NCBI GenBank assembly: GCA_963716535.1
Contig: OY970317.1
Span: 2,480,123-2,544,122 of the forward strand
Length of the DNA stretch: 64,000 nt
Reading direction: 5' to 3'
Origin: an uncultured Solirubrobacteraceae bacterium
GTDB taxonomy: Bacteria > Actinomycetota > Thermoleophilia > Solirubrobacterales > Solirubrobacteraceae
Shown: positions 21,742 to 48,939 of the stretch, in pieces
Layout: each line of letters starts with the position of its first letter
Numbering within the stretch: position 1 is the stretch's first letter
The notes under the pieces: generated by a model
The model's input: only the letters and a program-made list of their open reading frames with translations
Databases searched by the model: none
Told to the model about the DNA's origin: nothing
Translations under genes and position numbers: made by a program

Positions 21742-22431
21742 CTAGGTGCGAGGTTCGGCACGGTGTCTTGGATGTGTCGGCGTGCTTGTCCCGAGCGGGT
21801 CGAGACTTCCGCGCAGTGGGCTATCCCAGTATTCTAAGTCTGGCCCATCAGGAGTCATCGTATGTTGAATATCCATGAGGGCGGCCATTGCGTTTTGGAA
21901 TGGCCTGATATCGGTGAACTCGTCTCTGTGACGCCGCCATGCTGCCCATCGTCGCACGAAGTCACGCTTATCGTCGCCCTGCGCTCTCCAATAGTAATAA
22001 CCTGATGGTCGATCGCTATCAAGGATTTACCGTCCCATATTCGCGCTGACTCCATAGCATCGTCGTCGCCTGGCTGTCTGTACGAGTCATGTGACCAGGC
22101 GCGATAAATCCACCCGCGCTCGACATCGGTGAACGGTAGAAGTTTGTAGAGCTGCCCGACTCGCCGATAGCGCTTGTCGATAGGTCTTTCCATCCGCTCA
22201 TCAAGGGCATGGGCACCGCAGGAAATCAACCAGCGCACCAAACGCCCGGATATCGCTGTCTCCCCAGAATGGGTCCTCTTTCCAGGATGGGTCCCCGTCT
22301 GGCTCAAAAGGCATTGTTTCTTCACGCCTTTTTATGATGCCCGAATGCAACATACCGGCATAATTGCCTAAGTCGTTCAACAGCAGCGGCAGTCCTCGTC
22401 TTGATATCTCGCCTCCGTGCTCAGCACCCAT
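21742..22431 (-). pseudogene. Trp-rich hypothetical protein (~229 aa) with two compensating indels
   Basis: Three consecutive frames join as ...DFLRC/HALDERMER...IWDGK/ILDSDRPSGYYYWRAQ... if one C is removed (~22210) and one A is added (~22025). Confidence 0.55.
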
Positions 22432-22445
22432 AACAGTGACTACTC

Positions 22446-22463
22446 CTTACCTAATAAGGTAAG
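22446..22463. promoter_or_regulatory. Palindrome CTTACCT-N4-AGGTAAG, candidate operator
   Basis: 7-bp perfect arms in an AT-rich intergenic patch just upstream of the 22431 start. Confidence 0.5.
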
Positions 22464-22512
22464 TATAACATCATTTACTACATAATGCAACCATGAGCTG
22501 TCAACTTGGCTC

Positions 22513-23431
22513 TTACTGGATTATTCCATGCCGCATAGCCATTGCCGCAAGGGGCTGTGCTAAGGTCTTACAGATACGCTCCTCTTTTTCCTCTTGACGA
22601 TGAGGCTTGGAGCGTGGGTCGTGAAGTTCGTTCTCTCTGGAAAATAGATTCCGGCGACTTCGTTGGCGACGCTCATTCAGCGAAAAATAAGCTGCTCCAC
22701 TAAGTTCAAGCAATTCCACCAGACCGGCTTGGATTACAGTGTCCTGCTCGACTTCGCCAATAACCTGTACGAGGAGTCGCGGGTCTGTTGAGCGGGTATA
22801 TCAGCATCAGACATGACAGCTTCTGCCAATTTTGTCAGTAGCGGCACTCTGTTTGTGCTGATGGCTCGTGCAAGACTCTCATTGCGCACTTCCCGCAGCT
22901 CGTCGGCGATCATCTTTACGGCCGCCGTGGTGGCAATAGCGGTCATCGCCAGCTTTGGAGTAGCACTGTCGTCCTGCTCGTCTCGCGGCGGTACGCTGGG
23001 CTGTGTAGACGCGACCGGGCGACTGGCGGATGGTGGTTGTTCTTCTTCGGCCAACCGAACGAGATGGCCAGCAAGTTTTTGAGTAGCTCTTCTCGATCTT
23101 TTCCTCGAAATATTTCACACTGCATTGAAGCCGTTCTGCGGCGTGTGGGCGTGCAGCTTGAGAAATCGCACGGGCTTGACTGGGCCGAGGTCCAGGACCG
23201 CGGTGACAGCTTCGCGATCATTCTCTGGCATGTGTTTGGCGGCTGTCTCAAGCGCCGACACGATCTGATCGATCAGTGCCTCGTCGGGGTTCTCATTGAG
23301 AATGCGTGCGGCGGCCTCCAATGTCGGCGTGGGCTCCTTCCCCCGGCGGCGCACACGTAGCGTCGGACCTTCGCCAGCTCGGCGGCGAGGACGCTTGGAT
23401 CGAGGTTAGTGGTCTGTTGGCTCGTCTCCAT
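22513..23431 (-). pseudogene. Hypothetical ~305-aa protein interrupted by about five indels
   Basis: Frames join as METSQQTTNLDPSVLAAELAKVRRYV/RRRGKE...NAV/KYFEEKIE/ELLKNLLAISF/LAEEEQ...MSDA/YTRSTDPRLL...GIIQ. Two breaks are GTG-to-GTGTG duplications. Net correction of -1 nt gives 918 nt. Confidence 0.5.
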
Positions 23432-23562
23432 AGGCCGGTCGCCTTGGGATGTTATCGGGGGAAACCTGGGGTGTATTCCGACGTTTTTGGCTGCATTTAG
23501 GGGGGTTTGCGCGCTTAGGCTGCTCTGGCTGATGAAGCAATCTCAAAAGGAAGGAGCAACGC

Positions 23563-23880
23563 ATGTCTAAGCTAGCCCGTCGCCCCCCTGAATCGCTCCA
23601 GCCCGTGCTACAGGGACGATCAATACAGGCTGACCCCGTCCTGAATGCGCAGGTGTCCGCAGCGAGGCGAGCTGGCGTCGTCGCTGCTGTCCGCATCCAG
23701 AGCGGAGCTTTTGCAGCCTCAAGCGCCGTCCACCACGCCGCGATGGTCTCTCAGGCGGCAGACACGGCCTTTCGTATTAGTCCCCTCGGCGAGGACACCT
23801 ATCGGATGGTCGTCATGGCGTTCGGCAACTTCGCTAGAGCCGAGATAGAAGGACTCCGCTTCCACGACGGAGAGCGCTGA
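23563..23880 (+). CDS. Hypothetical protein, first gene of putative transfer operon
   Basis: AAGGAG RBS; 105 aa; coupled (TGATG) to the next gene. Confidence 0.75.
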   Translation: MSKLARRPPESLQPVLQGRSIQADPVLNAQVSAARRAGVVAAVRIQSGAFAASSAVHHAAMVSQAADTAFRISPLGEDTYRMVVMAFGNFARAEIEGLRFHDGER

Positions 23881-24119
23881 TGGTCGCCGCTCTGCTGGCT
23901 CTGCTGGCGCTCGCTGGTGTGATCCTGCTGATTCTGTGGTTTCTCTCGCTCGGCGCTGAACCACGACCGTCAGAGCTGGATGCCTACGAAGACGCGGCTA
24001 CACCCTACGTAGAAGCGCTGGACGTGGCCTTTCGCATTCAGCACGCCGCGTGGGAGGCAGAACAGCACATCTACGCCGCAGCGATACGGCACGCCGAAGA
24101 CGATCAGAGGCAGCAATGA
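23880..24119 (+). CDS. Small single-TM protein
   Basis: N-terminal hydrophobic helix; coupled on both sides. Confidence 0.75.
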   Translation: MVAALLALLALAGVILLILWFLSLGAEPRPSELDAYEDAATPYVEALDVAFRIQHAAWEAEQHIYAAAIRHAEDDQRQQ

Positions 24120-24310
24120 CCACGCCGCCGTCTCACTGGTTGGACGGGCTATTGCACAAGGCTCTGACTATTTTTGCCATTGCGCTGCTGTTGTATCTTG
24201 CGGCTCGTCTCATCATCGCAGTGCTGCCGGTTCTGATCGTGGCCGGCGCAGTGGTGCTCGTGGGCTGTGCGGGCTGGTCGATTTATCAGTTTCGGAAGTC
24301 CCGGTGGTGA
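24116..24310 (+). CDS. Small two-TM membrane protein
   Basis: MTTPPSHWLDGLLHKALTIFAIALLLYLAARLI...; ATGA overlap. Confidence 0.7.
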   Translation: MTTPPSHWLDGLLHKALTIFAIALLLYLAARLIIAVLPVLIVAGAVVLVGCAGWSIYQFRKSRW

Positions 24311-24544
24311 GGTATCGACTGACGTTCGCGCCCGTCGTATCGGTGTAGTGAAATGCACACAGCAGTATTGACATAACACGGCTATGTGTTGTTAGCTAGA
24401 AGGTTCCCGTTACTGCCGTAAGTAGTACACGGCCCGCCTGGGAGACGAACGCACCTGAATCACAGTAAGTAGCCCTATCAAAAGGGGGTGGTGCTCTTTG
24501 TGTCCTTTTTTCGGCCCGGTGTGGAACGGAAAGGAGGTACAGCG

Positions 24545-24748
24545 ATGAGTAGGACATATCATCACGGAGAACGCAAAATTAGAGTGAGAGGGGTGAGGCG
24601 GCCGACGGACGTCAAGCGCCTTGCCCGTGCCTTGATCGAGCTGGAGTATCAGGAGGCGCAGGCCGAAGCGGCAGCCGAAGCCGAACACCAAGCCAAGAAA
24701 GGCAAGCAAAGCAAACGTCGGGGCAACGGTCGAGAGGGGCGCTCGTGA
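24545..24748 (+). CDS. Small basic hypothetical protein
   Basis: AAGGAGG RBS; MSRTYHHGERKIRVRGVRRPTDVKRLARALIEL. Confidence 0.75.
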   Translation: MSRTYHHGERKIRVRGVRRPTDVKRLARALIELEYQEAQAEAAAEAEHQAKKGKQSKRRGNGREGRS

Positions 24749-24761
24749 AAACTCCGAGCTG

Positions 24762-26906
24762 GTGTGGTATCGGTTGCGCTGGCCGCGCGAGGTTGAGGCT
24801 GAGCAGGTCACGCAGGTATGCCGGCTGCTGGCGACGGCGGCGGGTGAGCCGGTAATCCTTGAGGTTGGTGGTCGGCCGGGCCAAGTGGAGCATCGGCTGG
24901 CATTGCCCATAGTACGAGCGGGTAGCACTGTCGATCAGCTCCGCGCGGCAATCCCCGGCCTAGCGATCGAGACCCTGAAAGAGCGAACGGTGGTGGCGAC
25001 TCATGCCGTCGAGTTGCGCCTAACCACGCGGCGGCGATCACTGCGGATTGAGGACGTAGTGAGTAGCAGCCGGGCGCTGTTGACGGCGCTCGCGCACCTG
25101 GGCCGGGGCGAGTACCTAACGCTGCAATGGGTACTCGGTCGGACGTTGCCGGCGATGGTCGTGCCGAACCGACTGGTAGGCATCGACCGAGAGACCTGGC
25201 TCGGTGCTCTGCTGGCGGCACCGTTCAGTCCGCCGCAGCCGGTGGACGCGGAAGTCCGAAACGCGCTGCGCGCCAAGCAAGGCGAGCCGGGCTGGCGAGC
25301 GGTCGGCCGTATCGGCGTGATGGCGAAGACAGTCGGTCGTGAACGCCAGCTCGTGCGCCAAGTCGTCGGGGCGCTCGGTAGTACCGGCGCGCCGGGTGTC
25401 AGCTTTTGGGTGCGCCCGACAAGAGCGAGCCGCGTGGCGTCAGCGACGGTCGGCTGGCGGTTTCCCTTGCGTCTGAACGTGCACGAGTTCGCCAGTGTGG
25501 CTGCCCTGCCCGTTGGTCCGACTCGTGATCTGCCGGTGTCGAAGATCGGTAGCCGTCTGTTGCCGCCGCCCCGGTCGATCGGGCGCACCGGGCGGGTGCT
25601 GGCTCAGGCGACGTATCCGAACCGAGAGCGACCGCTGGCGCTGGCCGCTACCGATTCACTACGGCACTTGCACGCCTTGGGGCCAACCGGCGTCGGTAAG
25701 TCCACGCTGCTGTTGAACCTCATCGCCCAGGACATGAGGGCTGGTCGTGCGGTTGTCGTGATTGAGCCGAGGGGAGACCTCATTGCTGATGTGTTGGCGC
25801 GCGTTCCAGCGGAGCGCGTGGCCGACGTGGTGCTGCTCGATCCGACTGACCTCGGACAGCCGGTGGGCCTGAATCCGCTGGCGGCGCAGGGGCGCTCCCC
25901 GGAGCTGGTGGCCGATCAGTTGCTCGGCATGTTCCACGTGCTCTATGCCGCATATTGGGGACCGCGCACGCATGACATTCTCGGGTCGTCGCTGCTGACA
26001 CTGGCGCGGATACCGGGCATGACCTTGGCGGCGCTTGTGCCGCTGCTCACCGATGCCGCATTTCGGCGGCAGGTGGTCGGGCAAGTTGTCGATCCCATCG
26101 GGCTCGGGCCGTTCTGGAGTGCTTTCGAGGCGTGGAGCGATCAGGAACGGGTCACGGCCATCGCGCCGGTTATGAACAAGCTACGGCCGTTGCTGCTCAG
26201 GCCGGAAATGCGGGCCATCATCGGGCAAGCTCGCCCGCGCTTCGGGCTCCAGCAGGTTTTCACAGAGCGCAAGATTCTGCTCGTCAATCTCAGCCGAGGA
26301 CAGCTCGGGCCAGAGACGGCGGCGCTACTCGGCAGTCTCATCGTCTCGCAGCTCTGGCAGGCGGTACTCGGTCGGTCAGCCGTGCCCCGCGAGCGTCGGC
26401 ATCCGGTGTTTGTGGTGCTCGATGAGTTTCAGGACTACCTACATCTGCCGGTAGACCTTGCGGACGCACTGGCGCAGGCGCGTGGTCTTGGCGTTGGCTT
26501 CGCGCTGGCACACCAATACCTGCACCAGCTCGACGCGGGGATGCGCTCAGCGGTGCTCGCTAACGCACAGTCGCGGATCGCCTTCCGGCTGCCAGCCGAG
26601 GATGCTCGCGTGCTCGCCAGCGGCAGCACCCTGGCACCCGAGGACTTCCAGAGTCTCGGTGCCTTTGAGTGCTACGCCCAGCTTGTCGCTAAGAAGGCTG
26701 TGCAGCCGTGGTGCAGCGCGCGTACCTTGCCGGCCGGCGAGTCACTGAGCGATCCGGGCGTTGTTCGGGCAGCGTCCCGTGCGGCCTACGGTGTCGATCG
26801 CGCGAGCGTCGAGGCAGAGCTACGCGAGCTGTTCGTCGGCCGGGCTGAGGGTGACTACAGCGACCTGACACCCCGCCGACTTGGCGACGGAGGCAGCAAT
26901 GACTAG
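24762..26906 (+). CDS. VirD4/TraD-like type IV coupling ATPase
   Basis: Walker A GPTGVGKST, VVIEPRGDL, GLNPL, Walker B LDEFQ, ARGLGVGFALAHQYLHQL. The true start is probably GTG 24745 if one A is missing from the AAAA run at 24748-24751. Confidence 0.88.
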   Translation: MWYRLRWPREVEAEQVTQVCRLLATAAGEPVILEVGGRPGQVEHRLALPIVRAGSTVDQLRAAIPGLAIETLKERTVVATHAVELRLTTRRRSLRIEDVVSSSRALLTALAHLGRGEYLTLQWVLGRTLPAMVVPNRLVGIDRETWLGALLAAPFSPPQPVDAEVRNALRAKQGEPGWRAVGRIGVMAKTVGRERQLVRQVVGALGSTGAPGVSFWVRPTRASRVASATVGWRFPLRLNVHEFASVAALPVGPTRDLPVSKIGSRLLPPPRSIGRTGRVLAQATYPNRERPLALAATDSLRHLHALGPTGVGKSTLLLNLIAQDMRAGRAVVVIEPRGDLIADVLARVPAERVADVVLLDPTDLGQPVGLNPLAAQGRSPELVADQLLGMFHVLYAAYWGPRTHDILGSSLLTLARIPGMTLAALVPLLTDAAFRRQVVGQVVDPIGLGPFWSAFEAWSDQERVTAIAPVMNKLRPLLLRPEMRAIIGQARPRFGLQQVFTERKILLVNLSRGQLGPETAALLGSLIVSQLWQAVLGRSAVPRERRHPVFVVLDEFQDYLHLPVDLADALAQARGLGVGFALAHQYLHQLDAGMRSAVLANAQSRIAFRLPAEDARVLASGSTLAPEDFQSLGAFECYAQLVAKKAVQPWCSARTLPAGESLSDPGVVRAASRAAYGVDRASVEAELRELFVGRAEGDYSDLTPRRLGDGGSND

Positions 26907-26980
26907 CCGTCGCATCGCCCGTCGTATCGCGTTGAGCAGGTGTCACCAAAACACCTGCGTTGATGCAGAAAGCGGTGAAA

Positions 26981-27212
26981 CTTTGGCAACGAAAGATATG
27001 CACTACCGAGTGCAGTTCTTTCCCGTTCGTCGGGTGGCGGCCCGGGCGTGGCTTGTGCCGGGCAAGCTAGAGCCAACGGTCGGCGATCGTCGGCACGGGG
27101 CCAGTGCAGCGGGGGTGCGGCCTTCTCCGTCGCGCGGGGGTGCTCGTCGTGTCGTGTCGGGTTTCCCGGCGGTCCTACCCCTGTCTATTCCTTCCTCTTT
27201 GGCAACGAAAGA
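26981..27212. repeat. Direct repeat CTTTGGCAACGAAAGA x2 (26981-26996 and 27197-27212)
   Basis: Identical 16-mers in the gap between the coupling ATPase and the replication-relaxation gene; each has CTTT...AAAG ends. Confidence 0.8.
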
Positions 27213-27233
27213 AAAGACGCTCAAGGAGCCGGC

Positions 27234-28043
27234 ATGACGGGCAACACTGCGCGGTCATACACGTCGGCGAGGGGGGTGGCACAACTGCGTGAACGCTTGA
27301 GCGAGCGCGACTTGGACGTAATCCGGCAGGTGGCCGAACTGCGGCTGATGAGTGCCCGCCAGATTCAAGCCATGCACTTCCCGCTCGCCCGCCACGAGAA
27401 CGAGCTGGCCGCCACCCGCGCTCGCCAACGAGTGCTGACGAGACTGTGCCGCGACCAACTGCTGGCGGCACTCCAACGGCGGGTCGGTGGAGTCCGGGCC
27501 GGCTCGACGGGCCTGGTGCTCATGCTCGGGCCGCTCGGCCAGCGAGTCCTTGGACTCAGCGGTCGTCGCCGATTGCACGAGCCGGGCCTGCACTTCTTCG
27601 AGCACACGTTGGCCGCGAGCCAGCTCGCCGTAGACGTGAGCGTGGCAGCACAAGCCGGGACGCTGGAGCTACTGAGCCTGCAAGCCGAACCGGCCTGTTG
27701 GCGACGGGCGGCCGACCTGCACGGGCGGCGTTGGCTGCGACCCGATGCCTTCCTAGTGCTCGGCGTCGGTGGCTATGAGCTGCGCTGGTTCTGCGAGGTC
27801 GATCAGGCAACGGAGAGCATCGTGACCGTGCTCGGCAAGTGCCGGCTCTATGTGGCCTATCGGCAAACAGGTCGTGAGCAGGCCGAGGGCGGCGTCTTTC
27901 CCCGCGTCTGCTGGATAACACCAGATGAAACGCGGGCTGAGCGGCTACGCGAGGCTATCGAGCACGACCGCCAGTTGCCGGCCCAGCTATTCGTCGTGAC
28001 GACAAGCGAACGGGCCGTAATCACGCTCTGTTCGATCAAGTGA
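27234..28043 (+). CDS. Replication-relaxation family protein (Replic_Relax-like)
   Basis: N-terminal wHTH (LSERDLDVI..V...RLMSARQI..MHF), HTLA, LRPDA and FCEVDQATE PD-(D/E)xK-like motifs; AAGGAG RBS. Confidence 0.85.
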   Translation: MTGNTARSYTSARGVAQLRERLSERDLDVIRQVAELRLMSARQIQAMHFPLARHENELAATRARQRVLTRLCRDQLLAALQRRVGGVRAGSTGLVLMLGPLGQRVLGLSGRRRLHEPGLHFFEHTLAASQLAVDVSVAAQAGTLELLSLQAEPACWRRAADLHGRRWLRPDAFLVLGVGGYELRWFCEVDQATESIVTVLGKCRLYVAYRQTGREQAEGGVFPRVCWITPDETRAERLREAIEHDRQLPAQLFVVTTSERAVITLCSIK

Positions 28044-28142
28044 CAGACTAACTATGAACACGAAAGGGGGTAGCAATATGAGAGAAATAGTATTGACTAA
28101 ATGTAGTATACTTAACAACATTAGGAGTGAATATAGACCGCG

Positions 28143-29921
28143 ATGGAGCAGGAGGCAATATTGGTGAAACAAGGTGAGGTCGTCGAGCTAGACGGCGCTC
28201 CCGCCGTGGCCTACATCCGTGTGTCGAGCAAGGAGCAGGCCGAGAAGGGCGGCGAAGCGGAGGGCTTCTCGATTCCGGCTCAGCGTGAGGCGTGCAAACG
28301 GAAGGCCGCTAGCCTCCAAGCTGCGCTGATTGAGCAGTTCGTGGAGCGGGGCGAGTCGGCCAAGACTGCCGATCGGCCGGAACTACAGCGGATGCTCCAG
28401 TTCATTGCCGAGCATCCAGTCCGCTACGTGATCGTGCACAAGGTTGATCGCCTGGCGCGCAACCGCGCCGATGACGTGGCGATCAACTTGGCGATCCGAC
28501 AGGCCGGTGCCGAACTGGTGTCGGTGTCCGAGAACATCGACCAGACACCATCGGGCCTACTGCTGCACGGCATTATGGCGTCGATCAGCGAGTTCTACAG
28601 TCGCAACCTGGCGACGGAGGTCATCAAGGGCAGCGTGCAGAAGGCCAAGAACGGCGGCACGCCCGGCAAGGCCCAAATCGGCTACCTCAACGTGCGGCAG
28701 GTCATCAACGGACGGGAGGGACGCACGGTCGAGATTGATCGGGAGCGTGGGCAGCTAGTGACCTGGGCGTTCGACGCGTATGCGACGGGCGACTGGACGA
28801 TCCGTCGTCTGCTGGCTGAGCTGACCGCCAAAGGACTGACGACGGTTCCCGGTCCCAATACGCCAAGTCGGCCGCTGACCGTCTCGCACCTGCACCGGCT
28901 GCTGCGCCACCCGTACTACGTCGGAGTGGTTCGCTACCGGGGCGTGGTCTACGAGGGCAAGCATGAGCCGCTGACAACCCCGGAGACGTGGCAGCGGGTC
29001 CAAGAGTTGCTGACGGCCAAGTACCTCACGGGCGAGCGCCACCGCGAGCACCCGCACTACCTCAAGGGCTCGATCTTCTGCGGCCAGTGTGGCTCGCGCC
29101 TGATCGTCTGCCACGCCAACGGTCGGAACGGACGCTATCCGTACTTCATCTGCATTGGCCGGCAGCGAGACAAACACAGTTGCTCGCAGCGAGCGCTACG
29201 AATTGAGCGAGTCGAAGCCGCTGTTACGCGGTACTACGCGACCATCCAACTCGCAGAGCAGGAGCTAACCGACCTTCGGGCCTTCCTCCATGAAGAACTG
29301 ACCAATCTTCGGCTCGATGCCGAGCGCGAACGCCGCGTGCAGGATCGCCGGCTCATTGGATTGCAGGCCGAGCGCAAGAAGCTCCTAGATGCCCACTACG
29401 CCGACGCCATCCCGCTCGATCTGCTCAAGAGCGAGCAAGAGCGTCTGACACGCGAGATTGAGACGGCCGAGGGCCGCCTAGCAGCCGTCGAGGGCGATTT
29501 CCGAAAGGCCGAGACGAACCTCCGAAAGGCGCTGACGCGGGCCGGCGACTGCGAGACGGCGTATCGGGAGGCATCCGGGCCGCTTCGCCGACAGTTCAAC
29601 CTCGCGTTCTTCCGGCATCTGCACATTGATGATGACTACAACGTCTCGGGCGAGCTGACCGAGCCGTTCGACAGCCTGCTTGGGCCTGAGCTGCGGCGAG
29701 CCGTGGCAGTCCGAGCTAGCGAGGCGCTGAATGATGCCGTAGCACGCGAGCTGCGCCACCGAACGGACGACGGCACCAGCCTCGAAAACGAGGAACACCC
29801 ACGGGAGCCAGCGGAGCCGCTTTCCGTGGGTGCCTCAACCACCGCCTTTTCTTATGGGGGTGGTTCTAGTACGGAAGATATGGTGCCCCGTGCGGGACTC
29901 GAACCCGCCCCACCGGATTAA
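28143..29921 (+). CDS. Large serine recombinase (integrase)
   Basis: AYIRVSS catalytic motif, SIPAQ, DRLAR, recombinase domain, Zn ribbon CGQCG...YFIC...C, coiled coil. The last 11 codons are antisense tRNA-Lys sequence. Confidence 0.95.
   Translation: MEQEAILVKQGEVVELDGAPAVAYIRVSSKEQAEKGGEAEGFSIPAQREACKRKAASLQAALIEQFVERGESAKTADRPELQRMLQFIAEHPVRYVIVHKVDRLARNRADDVAINLAIRQAGAELVSVSENIDQTPSGLLLHGIMASISEFYSRNLATEVIKGSVQKAKNGGTPGKAQIGYLNVRQVINGREGRTVEIDRERGQLVTWAFDAYATGDWTIRRLLAELTAKGLTTVPGPNTPSRPLTVSHLHRLLRHPYYVGVVRYRGVVYEGKHEPLTTPETWQRVQELLTAKYLTGERHREHPHYLKGSIFCGQCGSRLIVCHANGRNGRYPYFICIGRQRDKHSCSQRALRIERVEAAVTRYYATIQLAEQELTDLRAFLHEELTNLRLDAERERRVQDRRLIGLQAERKKLLDAHYADAIPLDLLKSEQERLTREIETAEGRLAAVEGDFRKAETNLRKALTRAGDCETAYREASGPLRRQFNLAFFRHLHIDDDYNVSGELTEPFDSLLGPELRRAVAVRASEALNDAVARELRHRTDDGTSLENEEHPREPAEPLSVGASTTAFSYGGGSSTEDMVPRAGLEPAPPD
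29837..29865 (-). terminator. Hairpin 15 nt downstream of tRNA-Lys, inside the integrase CDS
   Basis: On the minus strand AACCACCCCC / GGCGGTGGTT, a 10-bp stem with one mismatch and a 9-nt loop; no U-tract. Confidence 0.45.
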
Positions 29922-29955
29922 AAGTCCGGCGCTCTACCAGATGAGCTAACGGGGC
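29881..29955 (-). tRNA. tRNA-Lys(TTT)
   Basis: GCCCCGT acceptor, D-arm, CCGGA-CTTTTAA-TCCGG anticodon arm, GGTTCGAGTCC T-arm, ends ACCA. Confidence 0.95.
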
Positions 29956-29970
29956 CTGCGGCCGAACAGT

Positions 29971-31416
29971 CTACGGCCCTTCGGCCGCGGCCACACGCAG
30001 AAGCTCCTCGATGCGCGTGAGCTTGACGCGGGGGCGCCCGGCGGGCTCGCCGAGCGCCCGCTCGTGCCGGTCGATCGCCTCCCAGCCGGAGTACGTGACC
30101 AGCTCGGGCTGGCGCGCCCGCAAGAGCTGCTCGACGGTCGCGGGATCGGGACTGGTCGGGGTGTGCGTCGGCCCGGGTCGCGGCGCGGTTTCGTCGCCCG
30201 GCGGTGTGAGGTCGGCGAGCATCGCGTCGACGGTCTCCTGTGCATCCTTCTTGTTGGTGCCGATCACGCCCGACGGGCCGCGCTTTATCCAGCCGACGAC
30301 GTACTCGCCGGGCAACGGTGCGCCGCTGGTGGGGTCGAGCACGCGGCCGCCGTCGTTGGGGATGACCGCCGCGCGATCATCGAACGGAACGCCCGGCAGG
30401 GGAACGCCGCGGTATCCGATCGCGCGGAACGCGAGCCCGGCGGGGATCGTCTCGCGCTCGCCGGTGGGCGTCGCGCGCAGGGCGCCGTCGGGAGCGGGCA
30501 CCAGCTCGTTGCGGATCAGCTCGACCGATCCCATGCGGCCGTGCTCGTCGGGGAGGAACGCGGCCGGCGAGAGCAGGAAACGCAGCACGATGCGCTTGTC
30601 GTGACCCTTGGGCGGCTGTGCGGCGTAGCCGCGCAGGATCTCGATGTTGCGACGGCAGGTGATGTCCTCCTCGGCGGCGCTGTCGGTGACGGCTAGCGCG
30701 CGCTCCAGCTCGTCGGCGTCGACGATCACGTCGGCGTCCGCAAGCTCGCCCAGCTCCAGCAGCTCGGGGTTCGTGAAGGCCGCCTGCGCGGGGCCGCGGC
30801 GACCGAGGATCACGACCTCGCGCACGCGGCTATCGGCGAGCACCTCGAGCGCATGGTCGGCTGTGTCGGTCGGCGCCAGCTCCTGCGGCGCGAGCACGAG
30901 CATGCGCGCGACGTCCAGCGCGACGTTGCCGTTGCCTACGACTACCGCGCGCTCGGCCGCGGCACCGCCGCCGGAGGCGGTGGTGAGGTCGAACTCGAGG
31001 TGCGTATGGTCGGGGTGGCCGTTGTACCAGCCGACGAACTCGGTCGCCGCGTGCGAGCCGGGCAGGTCTTCGCCGGGAATGCCGAGCGGCCGGTCAGACG
31101 GTGAGCCGGTGGCGTACACGACCGCGTGGTAGTGCGCCAGCAGGTCCTCCCTGGAGACATGCTCGCCGAGCGTGACGTTTCCGAAGTAGCGAAAGCGCGG
31201 GTGCGCCGCGGTCTTCTCGTAGATGCGCGTCACCGACTTGATCTTCGGATGGTCCGGGGCGACGCCCGAGCGGACCAGCCCCCACGGCGTCGGCAGGCGC
31301 TCGAGCATGTCGACCTCGAAGCGTTCGCTCGCGTGCTTCAGCAGGTGCCCCGCAGCGTAGAAGCCGGCTGGGCCCGAGCCGACGACCGCGACACGGATGG
31401 GCTGCTCGTCGGTCAT
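29971..31416 (-). CDS. fprA: Ferredoxin-NADP+ reductase (adrenodoxin reductase-like)
   Basis: VAVVGSGPAGFY, PWGLVRSGVAPDHP, GNGNVALDVAR, GWIKRGPSGVIGTN. Confidence 0.9.
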   Translation of the reverse strand: MTDEQPIRVAVVGSGPAGFYAAGHLLKHASERFEVDMLERLPTPWGLVRSGVAPDHPKIKSVTRIYEKTAAHPRFRYFGNVTLGEHVSREDLLAHYHAVVYATGSPSDRPLGIPGEDLPGSHAATEFVGWYNGHPDHTHLEFDLTTASGGGAAAERAVVVGNGNVALDVARMLVLAPQELAPTDTADHALEVLADSRVREVVILGRRGPAQAAFTNPELLELGELADADVIVDADELERALAVTDSAAEEDITCRRNIEILRGYAAQPPKGHDKRIVLRFLLSPAAFLPDEHGRMGSVELIRNELVPAPDGALRATPTGERETIPAGLAFRAIGYRGVPLPGVPFDDRAAVIPNDGGRVLDPTSGAPLPGEYVVGWIKRGPSGVIGTNKKDAQETVDAMLADLTPPGDETAPRPGPTHTPTSPDPATVEQLLRARQPELVTYSGWEAIDRHERALGEPAGRPRVKLTRIEELLRVAAAEGP

Positions 31417-42429: not shown

Positions 42430-44064
42430 TCAGGTTTCGATCGTGACAAGCGTGCCGATCGTTGTGTAGGGCCACTCCTCGGCGGCGGCTTCCAGCGGCA
42501 GCTCGACGCAGCCGAGGCTCTGCGGCGTGCCAAACGACGAGCGGTCGAAGTTGTGCAGTGCGTCGCCGCCGTTGAAGTAGCTGACCCATTTGATGCCGTG
42601 GTCTTCGTAGTGAGAGCCGTCGGGGTTGGTGCCGCTCATCGTCGTTTCGGGCAGGTGCTCGAACACGGCAAACGAGCCGAGTTCGGTTTCCGCGCCGGAG
42701 ATGCCGGTGTTGGCGGGCGAGGTCTCGACCGTGCGCCCGGCGCTCCACAGCGTCATCGTCTCCGGGACTTCACGGTGCACGTACACGTAGCTGTACGGTT
42801 CGTGCAGGCGCTTGTCCGCGAGCACGTAGCCGAGCAGCGCGTGCCACACCGAGGGGCCGGCTTCACCATCGACGGTGAGGTCGTTTTCGTTCTCGAACTT
42901 CATCACCGCGCCCTTCATCACGATGCTCCACTGCCCCGGGCTCCACAGCGCCTGCAGCTGTTGCGGGGTGTTTGCATAGCGCCAGGTGAAGCTGCCGCCC
43001 GGCGGTTCCACCGCCGCCTGTGCCTGCGCACTCGGCGTGTGCGCCACGCGCGCGCCCGACGGGTGCCACGAGACCGGCAGGTAGCCGGTCTCGGCGAGCA
43101 GCTGCTGCAGGCGCAGCGTCGAGCCGGGCGGCACCGTCCATTCGATCTGGTTGCTGCTGTGCAGGACGTTGCCCGCCCCCGCCGTCATCGCAACCGCATG
43201 CGGGAGTACGAGATGAAGCTGTGAGCCGAGCGCCGCGCCGAAGCCCGACGGCGTGAACACCAGCGTGTGGCTGTCCGCTTCGCTCCAGCTGCCGGACACG
43301 CTCGGTGAAAGCCGCGGCCGGCTCGAGCCGAGCACTTCGCTGACCGGCTTGGAGAACGTCAGCTGGATCGGCGTCGAGGGACCGATGTGCGAGCCAGCGG
43401 CCGGGAGGCTGACCATCACCGGCGAGTCCGACGGCGGGAACCAGCTCACCAGCGTGGGCGCGCCGGTGGTCTCCCATGGGCGCGCCGCCGCGGCGATCTC
43501 GACGGCCCCGGTCGCCGGCTGCCTGCCGAGCGAAACCGAGCTGCGCGCGGCGCCGAAGCCGCGGTAGGTGGTCTTGCCGGCGATCCGGTAGTTGACCGCG
43601 CTGACGGGCTGCGCGAAGCTGACCTGCACCGTCCCGCCGGGCGTCACCGTCATCCAGCGCTCTGACACCTGTGCGACCGGCGCCCGCAGCGTTAGCTGCT
43701 CGCTGCGCTTGGCGCCCAGCGCCCAACCGAGCCATCCCGGCCGGCGCACCTGCACGTCGACCGTCACCTGCTCGCCGGGCGTCAGTCGCTGTAGCGGCGT
43801 CAGGCGCCCGCCGACGACCGTGAGCGCCAGTCGCTTGCCGTCCGGGCCGTACGCCTGTACGTGCTCGATCGTGCCGCCCAGCGGCCCCACCGAGACGCGC
43901 GCGAGCGCCGTCGACGTGCTCGCCAAGCTCACGCCCGTCAGCGTCAGCGCGGCCACCACCACGAGCACGATCACTGAGACAACACCAGCCAACAGGCCCA
44001 GCAGGACGCGCTTGCGAGAGGACCAGTCCGCCACGGCGCCGCTAGGGGCCGACACGCTCGACAT
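42430..44064 (-). CDS. L,D-transpeptidase with N-terminal TM and Ig-like domains
   Basis: C-terminal YkuD motif GDALH...SLGCVELP; Ig-like/PG-binding segments upstream. Confidence 0.88.
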   Translation of the reverse strand: MSSVSAPSGAVADWSSRKRVLLGLLAGVVSVIVLVVVAALTLTGVSLASTSTALARVSVGPLGGTIEHVQAYGPDGKRLALTVVGGRLTPLQRLTPGEQVTVDVQVRRPGWLGWALGAKRSEQLTLRAPVAQVSERWMTVTPGGTVQVSFAQPVSAVNYRIAGKTTYRGFGAARSSVSLGRQPATGAVEIAAAARPWETTGAPTLVSWFPPSDSPVMVSLPAAGSHIGPSTPIQLTFSKPVSEVLGSSRPRLSPSVSGSWSEADSHTLVFTPSGFGAALGSQLHLVLPHAVAMTAGAGNVLHSSNQIEWTVPPGSTLRLQQLLAETGYLPVSWHPSGARVAHTPSAQAQAAVEPPGGSFTWRYANTPQQLQALWSPGQWSIVMKGAVMKFENENDLTVDGEAGPSVWHALLGYVLADKRLHEPYSYVYVHREVPETMTLWSAGRTVETSPANTGISGAETELGSFAVFEHLPETTMSGTNPDGSHYEDHGIKWVSYFNGGDALHNFDRSSFGTPQSLGCVELPLEAAAEEWPYTTIGTLVTIET

Positions 44065-44106
44065 TCCTAGATCCTAGGACGCCGTGCGGGCGTTCGTCTC
44101 ATTCGA

Positions 44107-44856
44107 CTACGAGTCGATCGTCACCGGGGTCCCTGAGCCGATGCGCGAGGCCAGCCAGTCGATGCTCGCGGTCGCCAGCCGGATGCAGCCGTGCGAGGCG
44201 GCGGTGCCCAAGGTTCCTCCGAGGTTCTCGCGTCCGTGGATCGCGATCTGGCCCGGGCCACCTTCGAATTCCTGCAGGACGTTCGAACGAGCGCTCAGCG
44301 CTAGCGCGAACGGACCGCCGGGCTCGCCGGCTTGCATCTGCAGGGTCTCTTCGACGAAGAAGTCGCCGGTCGGCGTCGGCGTGGACGGCTTGCCGACGAC
44401 CGCCTGAATGCTCTTCACGAGGTGGCCGTTGCTGTACACGCGCACACGGCGAGCCGCCAGATCGACGACGATGCTCCAAGCGGTCAGCGACGGGCGTGTG
44501 CCCTGTTCTGAGATCCAGCCGCTGGCTCCATTGGGACGACCAGGGAGCAGCACCAGCAGCCAGCGTTGGCCGTCGGGTGCGATCGAGCGTGCGATCACAG
44601 GCAGCGTGGTCGGCTCGCCCGTTATCGGCCGGCTGGCAGCCACGAGCGCGACCCGCGGTGAGCTGGCTTCGGGCGCTCGGTGCGCGCCGTGAGCACTTAT
44701 CAACACCACCAGTTCCTGTGTCGCCTGCACCCGTGGTGCTGCGGCGGCATCGATCGTGGCGACCGCGATCGACGAGGCGGCCAAGCCGGTAATGGTCGCC
44801 GCGACGATGCCGAGCGCGAGGTGGCGTATACGACGCGTGAAGCGCGGCGCGGTCAT
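44107..44856 (-). CDS. Secreted L,D-transpeptidase (YkuD)
   Basis: IVVDLAARRV, VVGKPSTPTPTG, IAIHG...ASHGCIRL; signal peptide; ATGA overlap with the ice-binding gene. Confidence 0.92.
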   Translation of the reverse strand: MTAPRFTRRIRHLALGIVAATITGLAASSIAVATIDAAAAPRVQATQELVVLISAHGAHRAPEASSPRVALVAASRPITGEPTTLPVIARSIAPDGQRWLLVLLPGRPNGASGWISEQGTRPSLTAWSIVVDLAARRVRVYSNGHLVKSIQAVVGKPSTPTPTGDFFVEETLQMQAGEPGGPFALALSARSNVLQEFEGGPGQIAIHGRENLGGTLGTAASHGCIRLATASIDWLASRIGSGTPVTIDS

Positions 44857-45812
44857 CCGGTGAAGCCGGCGTGGTGGTGAGGCAGCGCCGGCCGTGCGTG
44901 CGTGCTGGGCGCGGCTTTCCTGTGCGAGTGGCGCCGGCGACCGTGTTTGCCCGACTTGTCCGCGCCGGTCGATGTCCGGGGCGTGCCGGAGGCCGTAGAC
45001 GTGCCCGGTGTGTTGGTGCCGGTCGCTCCGCTGCCCGCACCCGCGCCGACCCCTGAGCCGCCGGCGCCGGGCGTCGCGGTGCTCGCCGTTTCGGTCCCGC
45101 CGCCCGAGCCGCTTTCGCTGGAGGGACAGTTCGAGGTGGTGAGCGTGTTCGTGTCCAGGTTCACGGCGCCGGTGCTCGCCAGCAGCCTGCCGTGGATCGT
45201 CGCCGCGGTGTTAGCGGTGATCGTCGCCGAAGCCATGATCGTGCCGACGAAGCTTGTGCCCGTCCCCAGCGTCGCCGAGGAGCCGACCTGCCAGAAGACG
45301 TTGCACGCCTGGGCGCCGTTGATGAGCAGGACGCTCGTGTTTGAGCCTGTGATCAGCGTCGTCGCGATCTGGAAGATGAACACCGCGTTGGGGTTGCCCT
45401 GTGCGTCGAGTGTCACGGAGCCGGATGACAGCAGCAGCGAGCTGCTGGCCGTGCGAACTCCAGGCAGGAACACCTGGCCGCTGAGGTCCGTCCCGGCGGA
45501 GCCGTTGCTGGGCCGAGAGGCGGCGTCGTTATAGGCCGTCGTGAGCGCGTTCTTGGCTGCGATCGAGACGGCATCGTCGACGTGGGTCTTGCCGAGTACC
45601 TGCGGAGCGCCCGTCACCGACGAGCCGGGGCTCAGCCCGAGGTCGCCGAACATCGTCGTGGGGCCTGTGTTGGTGACCGTGGAGCCGCCGAGCACCGAGA
45701 AGCTGGCAGCTGTGCCCAAGCCGACCGGTGCGCTCGCCGCGAGGGCGCTGCTCGCGAAGATCAGGCTGGACAGCGAGACGAGGAGCGCCAGCGCTACGCG
45801 GAAGAGATTCAT
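44853..45812 (-). CDS. Ice-binding family protein (DUF3494) with Gly/Ser/Thr linker and basic tail
   Basis: Signal peptide; LGTAASFSVLGGSTVTNTG, LDAQGNPNAVFIFQ, NGAQACNVFWQVGSSATLGT, GRLLA; AGGAG RBS before ATG 45812. Confidence 0.92.
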   Translation of the reverse strand: MNLFRVALALLVSLSSLIFASSALAASAPVGLGTAASFSVLGGSTVTNTGPTTMFGDLGLSPGSSVTGAPQVLGKTHVDDAVSIAAKNALTTAYNDAASRPSNGSAGTDLSGQVFLPGVRTASSSLLLSSGSVTLDAQGNPNAVFIFQIATTLITGSNTSVLLINGAQACNVFWQVGSSATLGTGTSFVGTIMASATITANTAATIHGRLLASTGAVNLDTNTLTTSNCPSSESGSGGGTETASTATPGAGGSGVGAGAGSGATGTNTPGTSTASGTPRTSTGADKSGKHGRRRHSHRKAAPSTHARPALPHHHAGFTG

Positions 45813-46239
45813 GCTCCTCTGATGCAGAGGGGGCCAGCTTGCCGCGAGGGGCCTGCCGCTGAGGAGGGGGCCGCCGTCGCAGGACCCGCACGGTTGTGGG
45901 ACGCCACCGTTCATGGGCGTCTCCTGACTGCGGTGTCGAGCACCGCGATAGAAAGGGAATGGCTCCCCGGCCTTCGTCGACCTGCCTACTACCCGACGCT
46001 TTTCTGGCTTCGCCTTAGTCGCTTGCCAGTAGCTCGAACATTCGTCTAGTGGGGTTGACGCCCGAAGGCCTGCGGTTTAGCGCTCGAAGCCCCGCAGCGC
46101 GACGTCCGAACGTCCGCACAAGTCCGACCTGTATGAAGCTCTGGGACGACGCGCTGAGCTGGTAGTGGACTATGCTCCCCGCTACTCAAGATATTCGATC
46201 GATTGTTCGATACGAAATCTTCATGATGTTGGCAAGCTG

Positions 46240-48939
46240 ATGAGCGCACGGCGGTCCGAGCCGCCTATCGCCGCGCGAGACGCGGACAGTACGTCGGCGT
46301 ACAGCACCTCGGACAGCTCGCCGGTATCGGCGGATGAAGCAGGCGGGGGACTGTCGGGTCGCGCGCGCACGACCATGGCTGGGGCGCTGATCCTCGTCCT
46401 TGGCCTTGCCGTCTCGACGTACGTGGCCGCTGACCGGCGCTCCAATGTGCGGGAAGCGAACAGGAGATCATTCGACTCGACGGCCGCCGATCTCAGCAGC
46501 GCGCTGGCGGCGAAGCTGAGCACGAACCTCGCGCTGACACGCACGATGCGTGCGCGCGCGGCGATGGAAACTCAGGAGAGCGAGACGCAGTTCCTGCAGT
46601 GGTACGGGGAACTGCAGCGCGGCGCGAGCGCTTCCCCAGGCGTCGTCGCGACGTTCATCCAGGTTGTCCCCGCCTCGAAGCTGTCGGCATTTCAACGACA
46701 GGTCGGGCTCGACCCCGCCTTTCGCAGGCTGCTCGGCGCCAAGCTGCAGGTCTTCCCAGGCGGTGGGCGTCGGACGTACTGCCTGACCAGGGCGATCGTC
46801 GGCAGCGATCTGCCGGCCAGTGCGTATCCAGGGCTGCTGGACTACTGCGCGCCGGTGGTTCCCGGCATCGGCCGCTCGCCATACCCGGCCCTGGTCAGCA
46901 CCGCGACGAACACGGGCACGTTCATCGTGTTGCCGCTGCCAGCCACCGGCAAGCGCTCGCTGGTCGCGATCGGCGCGGCCGTGTACAGGCGTGGCATCTC
47001 GACCGCCACGCTGTCCGCGCGTCGCGCGGCGTTGACGGGAATGATCGGGACGACGTTTGACAGCGTAAGCACGATTCGCTCCGTGCTCAGCGACCATCGA
47101 TCGGTGACGCTGGCGCTCTACCACAGGAACGTCGGCGGCCCGCTGCAGCTGATCGGCCGGGCGGGCGCCAATCCGGCGGGGCGCTCGCCGGGCTACCTCT
47201 CCGCTCGAAACCTGGGTGAAGGCTGGCTGCTCGAGACGAGCGGGACGGCGGAGCCGTTCGCCTCACCCGACGCCAAGGGGGTGATCGCGTTGGGCCTCGG
47301 CCTGCTTGTCACGATTCTCCTGTTCCTGCTTCATCGCGTGATGTCGGGCTCGCGCCAGCGCGCTTGGAGCCTGGTCGGGCTGAGGACCGGCGAGCTCGAG
47401 CACCGCGCGCTACACGATTCGCTGACGGAGCTCCCGAACCGCGTCCTGGTGCTCGATCGCGCCGAACAGATCCTGCAGCGAGCGCGACGTCTGGACGTCC
47501 CGGTGACGGCGCTGTTCGTCGACATCGACGGCTTGAAGCAGATCAACGACCGTCACGGCCACGACGCCGGTGACGAGGTCCTGCGTCAGGTCGCGGCACG
47601 ACTCAGGGCCAGCATGCGCGAGAACGACACGGTCGGTCATCTCGGCGGTGACGAGTTCGTGATCCTGATTGACGCCACGGGGCTCTACACGGCGCCGGAG
47701 CTGGTGGCCGAGCGCGTCCTGGACGTGCTGCGCCAGCCGATCGGCCTCTCTGAGCGAGAGCCCGCGTCGGTCTCCATAACAGCGAGCATCGGCATCGCCA
47801 CCGGCCGTCCCATGTCGGCCGAATACCTGATGCAGGACGCCGACCTCGCGCTGCACAAGGCCAAAGCGATCGGCAAGAACGGCTACGTCAAGTTCGAGTC
47901 CGCGATGCAGGTCGCCGCGCAGGATCGCATCCACCTGGAGATGGATCTCGCGGGGGCGCTGGACTCGAGCCAGTTCTTCCTCGTCTATCAGCCGATGCTG
48001 GATCTCGAGAGCGAGCGGGTCGTCGGCGTCGAGGCGCTGTTGCGCTGGCGGCATCCCGTCAGCGGCGTGATCCCGCCTGACGTGTTCATCCCGATCGCCG
48101 AGGACAACGGGCTGATCGTGCAGATCGGCCGCTGGGTGCTCGACCGTGCCTGCACTCAGGGCGCCGCCTGGCATCGCAACGGGTATCCGCTGAACATCTC
48201 CGTCAACGCCTCTGCTCGCCAGCTCGAGCGCCCGGAGTTCGTCGACGAGGTCCGCGCGGCGCTGCAGCGCAGCGCCCTGGCGCCGACGAGCCTGACGATC
48301 GAGATCACCGAGACGGTGCTGATGCGCAAGCCCGATGCGACCGCGCGGCTGCTCAGTGAGCTCAAGGCTCTCGGCGTGCGGATCGCGGTCGATGACTTCG
48401 GCACCGGGTACAGCTCGCTGGCGTACCTGCGCCAGTTCCCGGTCGACTCGCTGAAGATAGACCGCACGTTCATCACCGGCCTGTCGCTCTCCAGAGAGGC
48501 GCATGCGCTCACGCACACGCTGATCCAGCTCGGCAAGGCCCTCGGTCTGCAAACGCTCGCCGAGGGCGTCGAGCACCACAATCAAGTTCGCGAGCTGCAG
48601 CGCGAGGGCTGTGACCTGGCGCAGGGGTTCCTGTTCGCCCGCCCGCATTCGCGGCCAGAAGATGGTGTACCAGTACTCCGGTACACTGTGGATGTGCCAC
48701 CGACCACGCTGCGGGTCCAGGTCACGCTCGACCCCGAGCTTGCTGCTGCTGTAGCTGAGTTCGGCGGCATGGAGCCACGCTCGCGCGCCGTGCGTGACCT
48801 TGCGCTGCGTGGTGCAGAGGCGATCCGTGCGGAGCGCGCAGACAGAGGCAAGGCTCGCGATCATCTGCTGCGGATCGCAGTAGGTGATGATGACGGTTAC
48901 GATTTCGCCGTCTCAGAGCAGCTGCATGCCGATCGCTGA
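46240..48939 (+). CDS. Membrane sensor (CHASE-like) GGDEF-EAL protein reading through into an antitoxin-like tail
   Basis: Two TMs; HDSLTELPNR, RxxD I-site (REND), GGDEF; EAL, DDFGTGYSS, EGVE, QGFLFARP. Start approximate. Confidence 0.9.
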   Translation: MSARRSEPPIAARDADSTSAYSTSDSSPVSADEAGGGLSGRARTTMAGALILVLGLAVSTYVAADRRSNVREANRRSFDSTAADLSSALAAKLSTNLALTRTMRARAAMETQESETQFLQWYGELQRGASASPGVVATFIQVVPASKLSAFQRQVGLDPAFRRLLGAKLQVFPGGGRRTYCLTRAIVGSDLPASAYPGLLDYCAPVVPGIGRSPYPALVSTATNTGTFIVLPLPATGKRSLVAIGAAVYRRGISTATLSARRAALTGMIGTTFDSVSTIRSVLSDHRSVTLALYHRNVGGPLQLIGRAGANPAGRSPGYLSARNLGEGWLLETSGTAEPFASPDAKGVIALGLGLLVTILLFLLHRVMSGSRQRAWSLVGLRTGELEHRALHDSLTELPNRVLVLDRAEQILQRARRLDVPVTALFVDIDGLKQINDRHGHDAGDEVLRQVAARLRASMRENDTVGHLGGDEFVILIDATGLYTAPELVAERVLDVLRQPIGLSEREPASVSITASIGIATGRPMSAEYLMQDADLALHKAKAIGKNGYVKFESAMQVAAQDRIHLEMDLAGALDSSQFFLVYQPMLDLESERVVGVEALLRWRHPVSGVIPPDVFIPIAEDNGLIVQIGRWVLDRACTQGAAWHRNGYPLNISVNASARQLERPEFVDEVRAALQRSALAPTSLTIEITETVLMRKPDATARLLSELKALGVRIAVDDFGTGYSSLAYLRQFPVDSLKIDRTFITGLSLSREAHALTHTLIQLGKALGLQTLAEGVEHHNQVRELQREGCDLAQGFLFARPHSRPEDGVPVLRYTVDVPPTTLRVQVTLDPELAAAVAEFGGMEPRSRAVRDLALRGAEAIRAERADRGKARDHLLRIAVGDDDGYDFAVSEQLHADR
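48665..48687 (+). promoter_or_regulatory. Operator palindrome GTGTACC-N8-GGTACAC overlapping a TACACT -10 box
   Basis: 7-bp perfect arms; TACACT at 48682-48687 sits 6 nt before GTG 48694, the geometry of a leaderless promoter. Confidence 0.65.
48694..48939 (+). CDS. VapB-like (ribbon-helix-helix) antitoxin, in frame with the upstream EAL gene
   Basis: LRVQVTLDPELAAAV...SRAVRDLALRG RHH-like pattern; overlaps the vapC start. Confidence 0.65.
   Translation: MPPTTLRVQVTLDPELAAAVAEFGGMEPRSRAVRDLALRGAEAIRAERADRGKARDHLLRIAVGDDDGYDFAVSEQLHADR

Follow-up and report, generated by a model that had tools for sequence, protein, structure and literature searches.

How does a monoderm soil bacterium keep a secreted protein at its surface when that protein carries neither a membrane anchor nor a complete sortase signal? 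The question is raised by three genes that lie head to tail on the minus strand of the window analysed here, a 64,000-nucleotide stretch of contig OY970317.1 (assembly GCA_963716535.1) from an uncultured Solirubrobacteraceae bacterium, whose genome is a single contig of 3.55 Mb with a GC content of about 70%. The source names of the closest homologues agree with this family and put it in the class Thermoleophilia of the phylum Actinomycetota. The genes encode a secreted ice-binding-like protein of the DUF3494 family (the cargo), an exported YkuD-family L,D-transpeptidase (Ldt1) and a second YkuD protein (Ldt2). A sequence-only reading of the locus had described the parts of the DUF3494 protein, the ATGA overlap that joins it to Ldt1 and the second YkuD gene, which starts exactly 42 bp past the Ldt1 stop, and all of these lie where it had placed them. 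The cargo stop codon TGA (44853-44855) overlaps the Ldt1 ATG (44854-44856), an arrangement that indicates translational coupling of the two genes. The cargo tail, ending in Phe-Thr-Gly (FTG), and Ldt1 are a real, conserved and apparently undescribed signal-enzyme pair. The pair can be read as a two-gene surface-display module in which a Sec-exported solenoid with a disordered stalk and a C-terminal tail is served by a tail-dedicated exported YkuD enzyme, and the chances for and against this reading are evenly balanced.

Which part of the cargo is under selection? The protein ends in ...ARPALPHHHAGFTG-stop, with the stop codon directly after the Gly, and it is the sole open reading frame (ORF) of at least 80 aa ending in FTG in the whole genome, where a [FYWLIM]TG end is found in 13 of 24,053 ORFs of that size. 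The 120 nearest database homologues all end in FTG, with the C-terminal consensus A-R-P-A-L-P-x-x-[RH]-[GAS]-[SAG]-F-T-G-COOH. When these sequences are anchored at the C-terminus, the columns at -3 to -1 have zero entropy and those at -14 to -9 nearly zero. The linker ahead of the tail is hypervariable among the homologues (K/R/H make up 29% of residues in the tails vs 3% in the solenoid). Every intact orthologue in relatives ends in FTG, and orthologues from other families of the order, at 46-57% identity, have an Ig-like domain in place of the basic linker and end in GFTG, QFTG or RFTG. Across 41 junctions between a cargo with such a tail and an L,D-transpeptidase (Ldt) gene, 11 of which show the same ATGA overlap, Thr is encoded by ACA, ACC, ACG and ACT and Gly by GGA, GGC, GGG and GGT, that is, by all four codons each. 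The tail is also retained both at overlapping junctions and where 5-230 nt separate the stop from the Ldt start. Selection therefore acts on the peptide and not on the DNA, and the alignments indicate that the tail is conserved at the protein level. A non-conserved tail, which the sequence-only reading had named beforehand as refuting its proposal, is overturned by this invariance and by the persistence of FTG through synonymous codon change. As judged from the sequences, the module signal can be written as ...[AK][RK]P[AP]-hydrophobic-x(4)-small-[FLIV]-T-G-COOH, with no membrane anchor after it. The curated NCBIfam collection contained no sorting-signal model that matched the tail.

If the tail is a signal, which enzyme goes with it? 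An Ldt1 orthologue follows the ice-binding protein (IBP) gene in every relative in which the locus is long enough; in G038 the cargo lies at a contig end. In a set of 40 relatives, the genomes with an Ldt1 orthologue (at least 48% identity, E <=1e-30) are exactly those that bear an FTG protein, and relatives without such a protein have only Ldt1 paralogues of at most 43% identity. Both genes are present in G003, 5, 6, 8, 10, 14, 15, 18, 23, 24, 28, 33 and 39. In a further relative, G019 (L013/L018, C7:256405-260332), in-frame stops interrupt both the IBP gene (three TGA and one TAG) and the adjacent Ldt1 gene (one or two TGA), which could be joint decay of the pair or errors in a 61%-complete assembly.

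The association extends beyond ice-binding proteins. In a survey of the class and phylum, 80 Ldt1-like loci were fetched, and in 42 of them a same-strand ORF ending in [FLIVA]TG (FAG once) lies directly upstream, vs about 0.1 expected by chance. Thirty-three of these 42 cargos are DUF3494 proteins with FTG, LTG or FAG tails. The other nine are not ice-binding-like, and five of them have Pfam matches: four are large repeat proteins (DUF11 or DUF5979) that end in G[IV]TG, and one is a DUF7507 protein with an FTG end. The remaining four comprise three FTG-ended proteins from other actinobacterial families, which have no Pfam match, and one small LTG-ended ORF outside the Pfam scan. The DUF11, DUF5979 and DUF7507 repeats look like the stalk repeats of surface adhesins, and these unrelated cargos have only the tail in common. 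Outside the class, an Ldt1 orthologue is likewise accompanied by an LTG-tailed IBP (L066). At another locus (L021 3270-3551, genome G021), a 93-aa ORF of AMKHEE repeats ending in ...SSADLTG runs up to the start of a YkuD gene whose product is 43% identical to Ldt1; this ORF could be a minimal cargo with a tail of the form hydrophobic residue-Thr-Gly (PhiTG).

Does the YkuD gene accompany the tail or the ice-binding domain? The discriminating test used 25 further DUF3494 genes of the class that had not been found through Ldt1. Seven of them carry the tail, and a YkuD gene lies directly downstream in six of these seven, with a divergent Ldt1 orthologue in the seventh. None of the 18 tail-less genes has a YkuD gene downstream (Fisher p 4e-5, for genes among which kin are not independent). 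What the YkuD gene accompanies is thus the tail, not the ice-binding domain. Eight of the 18 tail-less proteins carry a sortase signal (LPNTG, LPTTG, FPNTG or FPFTG) followed by a transmembrane (TM) segment and a basic tail (L087, L092-094, L098-100, L103). In a wider set of 150 mutually diverse DUF3494 representatives, 14 have a bare PhiTG end and many others have signals of the sortase, type IX secretion system (T9SS) or PEP-CTERM type. From these sequences, the PhiTG tail sits where sortase and other sorting signals sit in DUF3494 homologues. A lack of linkage between tail and Ldt genes, the other outcome set beforehand as refuting, is contradicted by the 6/7 vs 0/18 contrast, by co-inheritance and by the 42 of 80 loci. 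It is almost certain that the FTG-tailed cargo and Ldt1 are functionally coupled, and that Ldt1 reads the tail in some way is highly probable.

Ldt1 itself has the features expected of a working transpeptidase. It matches the YkuD profile PF03734 with E 1.7e-21 (77.8 bits vs a cut-off of 23.4), and comprises an N-terminal hydrophobic export segment, a beta-rich N-domain (aa 45-125) and the catalytic domain (aa 128-247). The His-x(14-17)-[S/T]-x-G-C-x-[R/N] motif is present, with H207 and S221-H-G-C224-I-R226 invariant in 46 homologues. Its AF2 model, with a predicted local distance difference test score (pLDDT) of 73.6, shows a canonical YkuD fold and a confident beta-rich N-domain. The best Foldseek match is Bacillus subtilis YkuD (1y7m, E 6e-9), followed by LdtMt2 at about 1e-7, and a profile search of PDB sequences also returned 1y7m (E 5.5e-13). 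The modelled fold and the intact His/Cys motif suggest a competent enzyme. Ldt1 scores far under the cut-offs of the NCBIfam Ldt equivalog models, and the JGI annotation of its homologues is 'lipoprotein-anchoring transpeptidase ErfK/SrfK'. In a tree of these enzymes the IBP-linked members form one clade with 100/99 support, and V/ITG cargos go with a sister clade. A further clade of the group, always found after an Fpg-like DNA glycosylase gene and taken to be housekeeping, never has a PhiTG neighbour. An insertion in Ldt1, SNVLQEFEGGPGQ, was considered as a cargo-binding loop and set aside as not diagnostic, since the Fpg-adjacent clade has it too. The tracking of F, L or V at position -3 with the Ldt clade was likewise rejected as a sign of co-evolution: the pattern follows species lineage and so is not independent evidence.

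The N-terminus of the cargo, MNLFRVALALLVSLSSLIFASSALA|AS, looks by inspection like a Sec-type signal peptide that ends in ALA|AS and contains no Cys (no lipobox). The Ice_binding profile PF11999 matches with E 2.1e-58 (197.9 bits vs a cut-off of 28.7; aa 40-225, profile positions 1-208 of 208). Its AF2 model contains the DUF3494 hallmark, a right-handed beta-solenoid (strands at aa 118-225, pLDDT >90 for aa 110-225) with a long alpha-helix alongside (aa 78-98). The linker, a Gly/Ser/Thr part followed by a basic stretch (KSGKHGRRRHSHRK...), belongs to a region that is disordered in the model (aa 230-319), and no TM helix is present in that model.

How could a YkuD enzyme act on such a tail? 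The bare Thr-Gly-COOH would mimic the L-centre-meso-diaminopimelate (mDAP)-D-Ala-COOH end of the peptidoglycan tetrapeptide donor, with the achiral Gly occupying the D-Ala site. Cys224 of Ldt1 would then attack the Thr carbonyl, Gly would leave and a thioester would form, to be resolved by a free mDAP amine on a wall stem peptide. The protein would end up amide-linked to the wall through its C-terminal Thr, the outcome of a sortase reaction reached by a different enzyme fold and with no membrane-retention segment. To our knowledge, Gly is the only proteinogenic residue able to sit in a D-Ala pocket. Such donor mimicry would account for the invariant Gly and Thr, their position at the very end, the lack of a membrane-retention segment and the intact catalytic motif. 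Chemically the mechanism is plausible, since mDAP-Gly bonds are both formed and cut by enzymes of the YkuD fold: DpaA cleaves this bond, and LdtD installs Gly at position 4 (PMC8263019). As to the acceptor, a Solirubrobacter isolate is Gram-positive and contains meso-DAP (PMC10722151). We infer that Ldt1 acts on the tail, which bond it breaks and that the wall is its acceptor. There is roughly an even chance that Thr-Gly, mimicking mDAP-D-Ala, is cut by Ldt1 and the Thr then linked to peptidoglycan in a sortase-like manner. The more general proposal is held more tentatively, at a little short of even: that bare [FLIV]-Thr-Gly-COOH may be a new class of cell-wall sorting signal in Actinomycetota, and this YkuD clade a convergent sortase analogue with a protein C-terminus as acyl donor, mDAP as acceptor, a polarity opposite to that of all known protein attachments by L,D-transpeptidases, and no need of a membrane-retention segment.

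Several points weigh against wall anchoring by this chemistry. We know of no YkuD enzyme that uses a protein C-terminus as acyl donor, and Thr is much smaller than mDAP at P1, which makes it a poor steric mimic. In the known cases of L,D-transpeptidase attachment (Lpp and outer-membrane proteins), the protein is the amine acceptor and not the acyl donor (PMC8263019). In one genus, 5-6 residues follow the FTG (FTGRAATTR-stop in L088/G142; FTGRAPAR-stop in L095/G304), a poor fit to a strict need for a free Gly carboxylate. Comparison with relatives (GGC-CGx-GCx vs GGC-TGA-GCx) suggests that the extensions are probably stop-to-Arg read-through; at both loci an intact YkuD gene still follows the extended DUF3494 cargo. 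Six metagenomic PhiTG representatives have enough flank to be informative: in three of them the nearest 1.3-3 kb contain no YkuD gene, and the other three have an adjacent one, which in one case is convergent with 62% identity to Ldt1. Gene order thus suggests that tail-YkuD adjacency is common and not obligatory, as with sortases. Tails of other kinds also occur beside these enzymes. In three genomes (L020 898-2328, L032, L041), collagen-like ORFs with Gly-X-Y repeats that end in ...[ST]-x-x-IEKL[AG] lie directly upstream of Ldt1 orthologues, and this end could be another conserved tail that pairs with this enzyme clade. At L026, L029 and L030, the upstream partner of an Ldt1 sub-clade ends in ...TRFVVTELDxAGHVHY[DE]xx and has no TG tail.

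What else could explain a conserved tail beside a conserved enzyme? The last codons of the cargo overlap the downstream start, and regions 5' of starts are often constrained, so FTG might be an artefact of the overlapping start or ribosome-binding site, or a chance product of GC-rich ORFs. Codon use, variable spacing, the persistence of the tail where no Ldt gene is adjacent and the 42 observed vs about 0.1 expected upstream ORFs refute a nucleotide-level or chance cause, which we regard as having next to no probability. The tail might instead be read by other machinery, such as the single sortase of this genome, a protease or a secretion factor, while the YkuD protein is an ordinary 3-3 cross-linker that remodels the wall around a bulky surface protein. 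The sortase has a clear LPFTG substrate, the FPFTG plus TM ends of some DUF3494 paralogues make FTG resemble the end of a local sortase motif, no YkuD gene adjoins half of the distant PhiTG proteins examined, and Ldt1 is an ordinary YkuD protein in fold and motif. However, LP at -5/-4, a hydrophobic segment and a charged stop-transfer tail, which established sortase work has found necessary for retention and processing, are all missing from the cargo end. Ldt1 orthologues are moreover found only where an FTG protein is present, which is unexpected of a housekeeping cross-linker, and the Fpg-adjacent clade is never beside a PhiTG protein. We consider reading by other machinery improbable.

Alternatively, Ldt1 may use the chemistry of Lpp and outer-membrane proteins, transferring a tetrapeptide donor onto the mature N-terminal Ala or a linker Lys of the cargo, with FTG as a docking motif only. 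This is the only experimentally known form of Ldt protein attachment, through the C-terminal Lys in Lpp and the N-terminal Gly/Ala in alpha-proteobacterial outer-membrane proteins (PMC8263019), and the cargo has a predicted mature N-terminus of Ala-Ser-Ala and Lys residues in its linker. However, the unrelated cargos share only the tail and no conserved Lys, no YkuD gene lies next to sortase-type DUF3494 paralogues of similar N-terminus, and mere docking leaves the strict final Gly and the Thr at -2 unexplained; attachment of this type is about as improbable as reading by other machinery. A less remote alternative, though still an unlikely one, is that Ldt1 does read the PhiTG tail and makes a product other than a peptidoglycan anchor, either by trimming the Gly, as a carboxypeptidase or in a maturation step, or by linking the tail to something else: a lipid, a secondary wall polymer, or a Lys of another cargo copy, which would give a polymer or a fibre like a pilus. 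The linkage of tail and enzyme is silent on the acceptor, the basic linker could offer Lys acceptors in some cargos, and the YkuD fold includes pure hydrolases, such as DpaA, which cleaves mDAP-Gly and mDAP-Lys (PMC8263019). Yet Ldt1 keeps the full transpeptidase motif, distant orthologues of the cargo have no Lys-rich linker, and homologues carry wall- or envelope-anchoring signals (LPxTG plus TM) at the same C-terminal position, which argues for anchoring.

How does the proposed module, with covalent wall anchoring as its outcome, compare with known systems? Sortases cleave LPxT-G, with classes E and F in Actinomycetota. They resemble the module in using a Cys transpeptidase and a C-terminal Thr-Gly signal, and in the predicted amide link between the Thr carboxyl and a wall amine; the passengers are of the same kinds (DUF3494, DUF11 and DUF5979 stalk proteins), and the signal types interchange on homologous proteins. 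Unlike a sortase, the module enzyme has a YkuD fold, and its motif stands at the very end of the protein with no LP at -5/-4, hydrophobic segment or charged tail. The LdtA, LdtB and LdtC enzymes of Escherichia coli (ErfK, YbiS and YcfS) are of the YkuD family and join the C-terminal end of Lpp to peptidoglycan, as is proposed for Ldt1. However, Lpp is a lipoprotein of a diderm that gives the epsilon-amine of its C-terminal Lys with peptidoglycan as acyl donor, whereas the cargo has a terminal Gly in 120 of 120 homologues, no lipobox, a monoderm host and a proposed polarity that is reversed. The beta-barrel outer-membrane proteins and LimB of Brucella, Agrobacterium and Coxiella extend Ldt tethering of proteins to the wall beyond Lpp, as proposed for the cargo. 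Their linkage, unlike that of the cargo, involves an N-terminal Gly/Ala or an internal Lys, in diderms and with no C-terminal motif (PMC8263019).

The YkuD-fold amidase DpaA (LdtF) of E. coli, which cleaves mDAP-Gly4, illustrates that a YkuD site accepts an L-centre-X-Gly-COOH bond. Unlike Ldt1, DpaA is a hydrolase of muropeptides and of the Lpp link and is not dedicated to a tailed protein. The logic of the module is also that of PEP-CTERM/exosortase, GlyGly-CTERM/rhombosortase and the T9SS C-terminal domain, where diverse secreted proteins bear a short C-terminal tag that occurs together with a single enzyme family; some DUF3494 relatives have PEP-CTERM or T9SS tails. Unlike FTG, each of these tags contains a TM helix or a folded domain, and the enzymes that go with them are not related to Ldt1. 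A 2026 review of bacterial surfaces gives Lpp as the sole L,D-transpeptidase protein attachment, and a search of the accessible literature found no paper on FTG or PhiTG tails with L,D-transpeptidases.

Is the organism free of sortases? It is not: one sortase gene lies about 277 kb from the locus, and at least one classical substrate was found outside the window (G000 C1:484324-484962 (+)), with LPFTG, a TM segment and RRQRR. The genome-wide regular expression for sortase signals is noisy in a GC-rich genome, and this one clear hit is what it yields as usable. A DUF3494 paralogue in another family (L099) carries FPFTG and a TM segment. Because the LPFTG substrate and the FPFTG paralogue both carry FTG followed by a TM segment, the bare FTG looks like a sortase signal truncated just past its TG, and the two signals may be related in evolution. 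The cargo was rejected as a sortase substrate: it has no LPXTG, TM segment or charged tail, and its end reads A-G-F-T-G, in which only TG matches LPXTG, with LP at -10/-9 and not at -5/-4.

The second YkuD gene, which the sequence-only reading had described alongside Ldt1, falls away on its distribution. Ldt2 is a YkuD protein anchored in the membrane at its N-terminus. Its match to PG_binding_1 is weak and below threshold, and its active-site motif, S-L-G-C-V-E-L, is atypical in that Leu replaces both His and Arg. Many genomes of the genus that have no IBP do have an Ldt2 orthologue (60-73% identity), and where a genome has both, the two lie on different contigs or about 550 kb apart and are never adjacent elsewhere. 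As a second component of the module Ldt2 was accordingly discarded, and its distribution marks it as an incidental neighbour.

What would such a module display? Thirty-one ice-binding proteins in the PDB match the cargo model at E <=1e-3, the best being 6eio (E 1.3e-9, 44% identity over 211 aligned columns), and the modelled fold makes an ice-binding role plausible. The score against the NCBIfam IBP equivalog is only 93 bits vs a cut-off of 400. Against a role as ice adhesin or antifreeze, the described Solirubrobacter isolate of the lineage is a mesophile with best growth at 28-30 C (PMC10722151). The cargo has its fold in common with the DUF3494 ice-binding proteins EfcIBP (6eio), SfIBP_1 (6bg8), ColAFP (3wp9) and FfIBP (4nu2). 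Unlike the cargo, the solved proteins have no described PhiTG tail or Ldt partner; the lineage of the cargo consists of mesophilic soil bacteria, and its putative ice binding is predicted from the fold.

If the proposed chemistry is correct, Gram-positive soil actinobacteria would have a second, sortase-independent route for covalent surface display, and the acyl donors of L,D-transpeptidase chemistry would come to include a protein. The bare xTG end of many secreted actinobacterial proteins would have an explanation, and annotators would have a simple rule for predicting wall-bound proteins. A three-residue tag with a small soluble enzyme (about 23 kDa when mature) would also be a possible tool for ligation and surface display, analogous to sortase A.

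Table 1. Features of the cargo-Ldt1 locus, in window coordinates.
Feature	Position	Strand	Basis
Cargo gene, secreted DUF3494 (ice-binding-like) beta-solenoid protein, 319 aa, FTG-stop end	44853..45812	(-)	PF11999 and AF2 model
Predicted Sec signal peptide MNLFRVALALLVSLSSLIFASSALA, cleavage after ALA	45738..45812	(-)	Sequence inspection; AF2 lone helix aa 2-24
DUF3494 / Ice_binding domain, aa 40-225	45138..45695	(-)	Pfam match, profile positions 1-208 of 208
Disordered linker, aa 226-305, Gly/Ser/Thr-rich then basic His/Arg/Lys-rich	44898..45137	(-)	pLDDT <50
Conserved C-terminal signal ARPALPHHHAGFTG	44856..44897	(-)	Column entropies, 120 homologues
Terminal Phe-Thr-Gly codons, with proposed scissile Thr-Gly bond	44856..44864	(-)	FTG in 120/120 homologues
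ATGA overlap, cargo stop / Ldt1 start	44853..44856	(-)	Read from sequence
Ldt1, exported YkuD L,D-transpeptidase, 249 aa	44107..44856	(-)	PF03734 and AF2 model
Ldt1 catalytic His207 ... Ser-His-Gly-Cys224-Ile-Arg motif	44179..44238	(-)	Invariant in 46 aligned homologues
Ldt2, neighbouring membrane-anchored YkuD protein, 544 aa, outside the module	42430..44064	(-)	Orthologue distribution

The cargo start given in the table has a Shine-Dalgarno sequence, AGAGGAG, just 5' of the ATG of the 319-aa form. Orthologues begin to align only at residue 2-6 of that form, which makes the longer cargo ORF from 45914 unlikely. Divergent from the IBP gene lies a gene for a 924-aa membrane GGDEF-EAL protein of cyclic di-GMP turnover (46165-48939 (+)), which may be a regulatory neighbour of the surface protein. 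Further away, window positions 14000-30000 are low in GC (0.57-0.65 vs about 0.70). A large serine recombinase gene (28143-29921) overlaps a tRNA gene on the opposite strand (29884-29955). The stretch also encodes a Replic_Relax relaxase (27048-28043), a TrwB-like coupling ATPase (24762-26906), a PHP+AAA protein (17893-19332) and an AAA_21/AbiEii-like ATPase (16697-17977), and from its sequence it looks like an integrated mobile element beside the tRNA gene.

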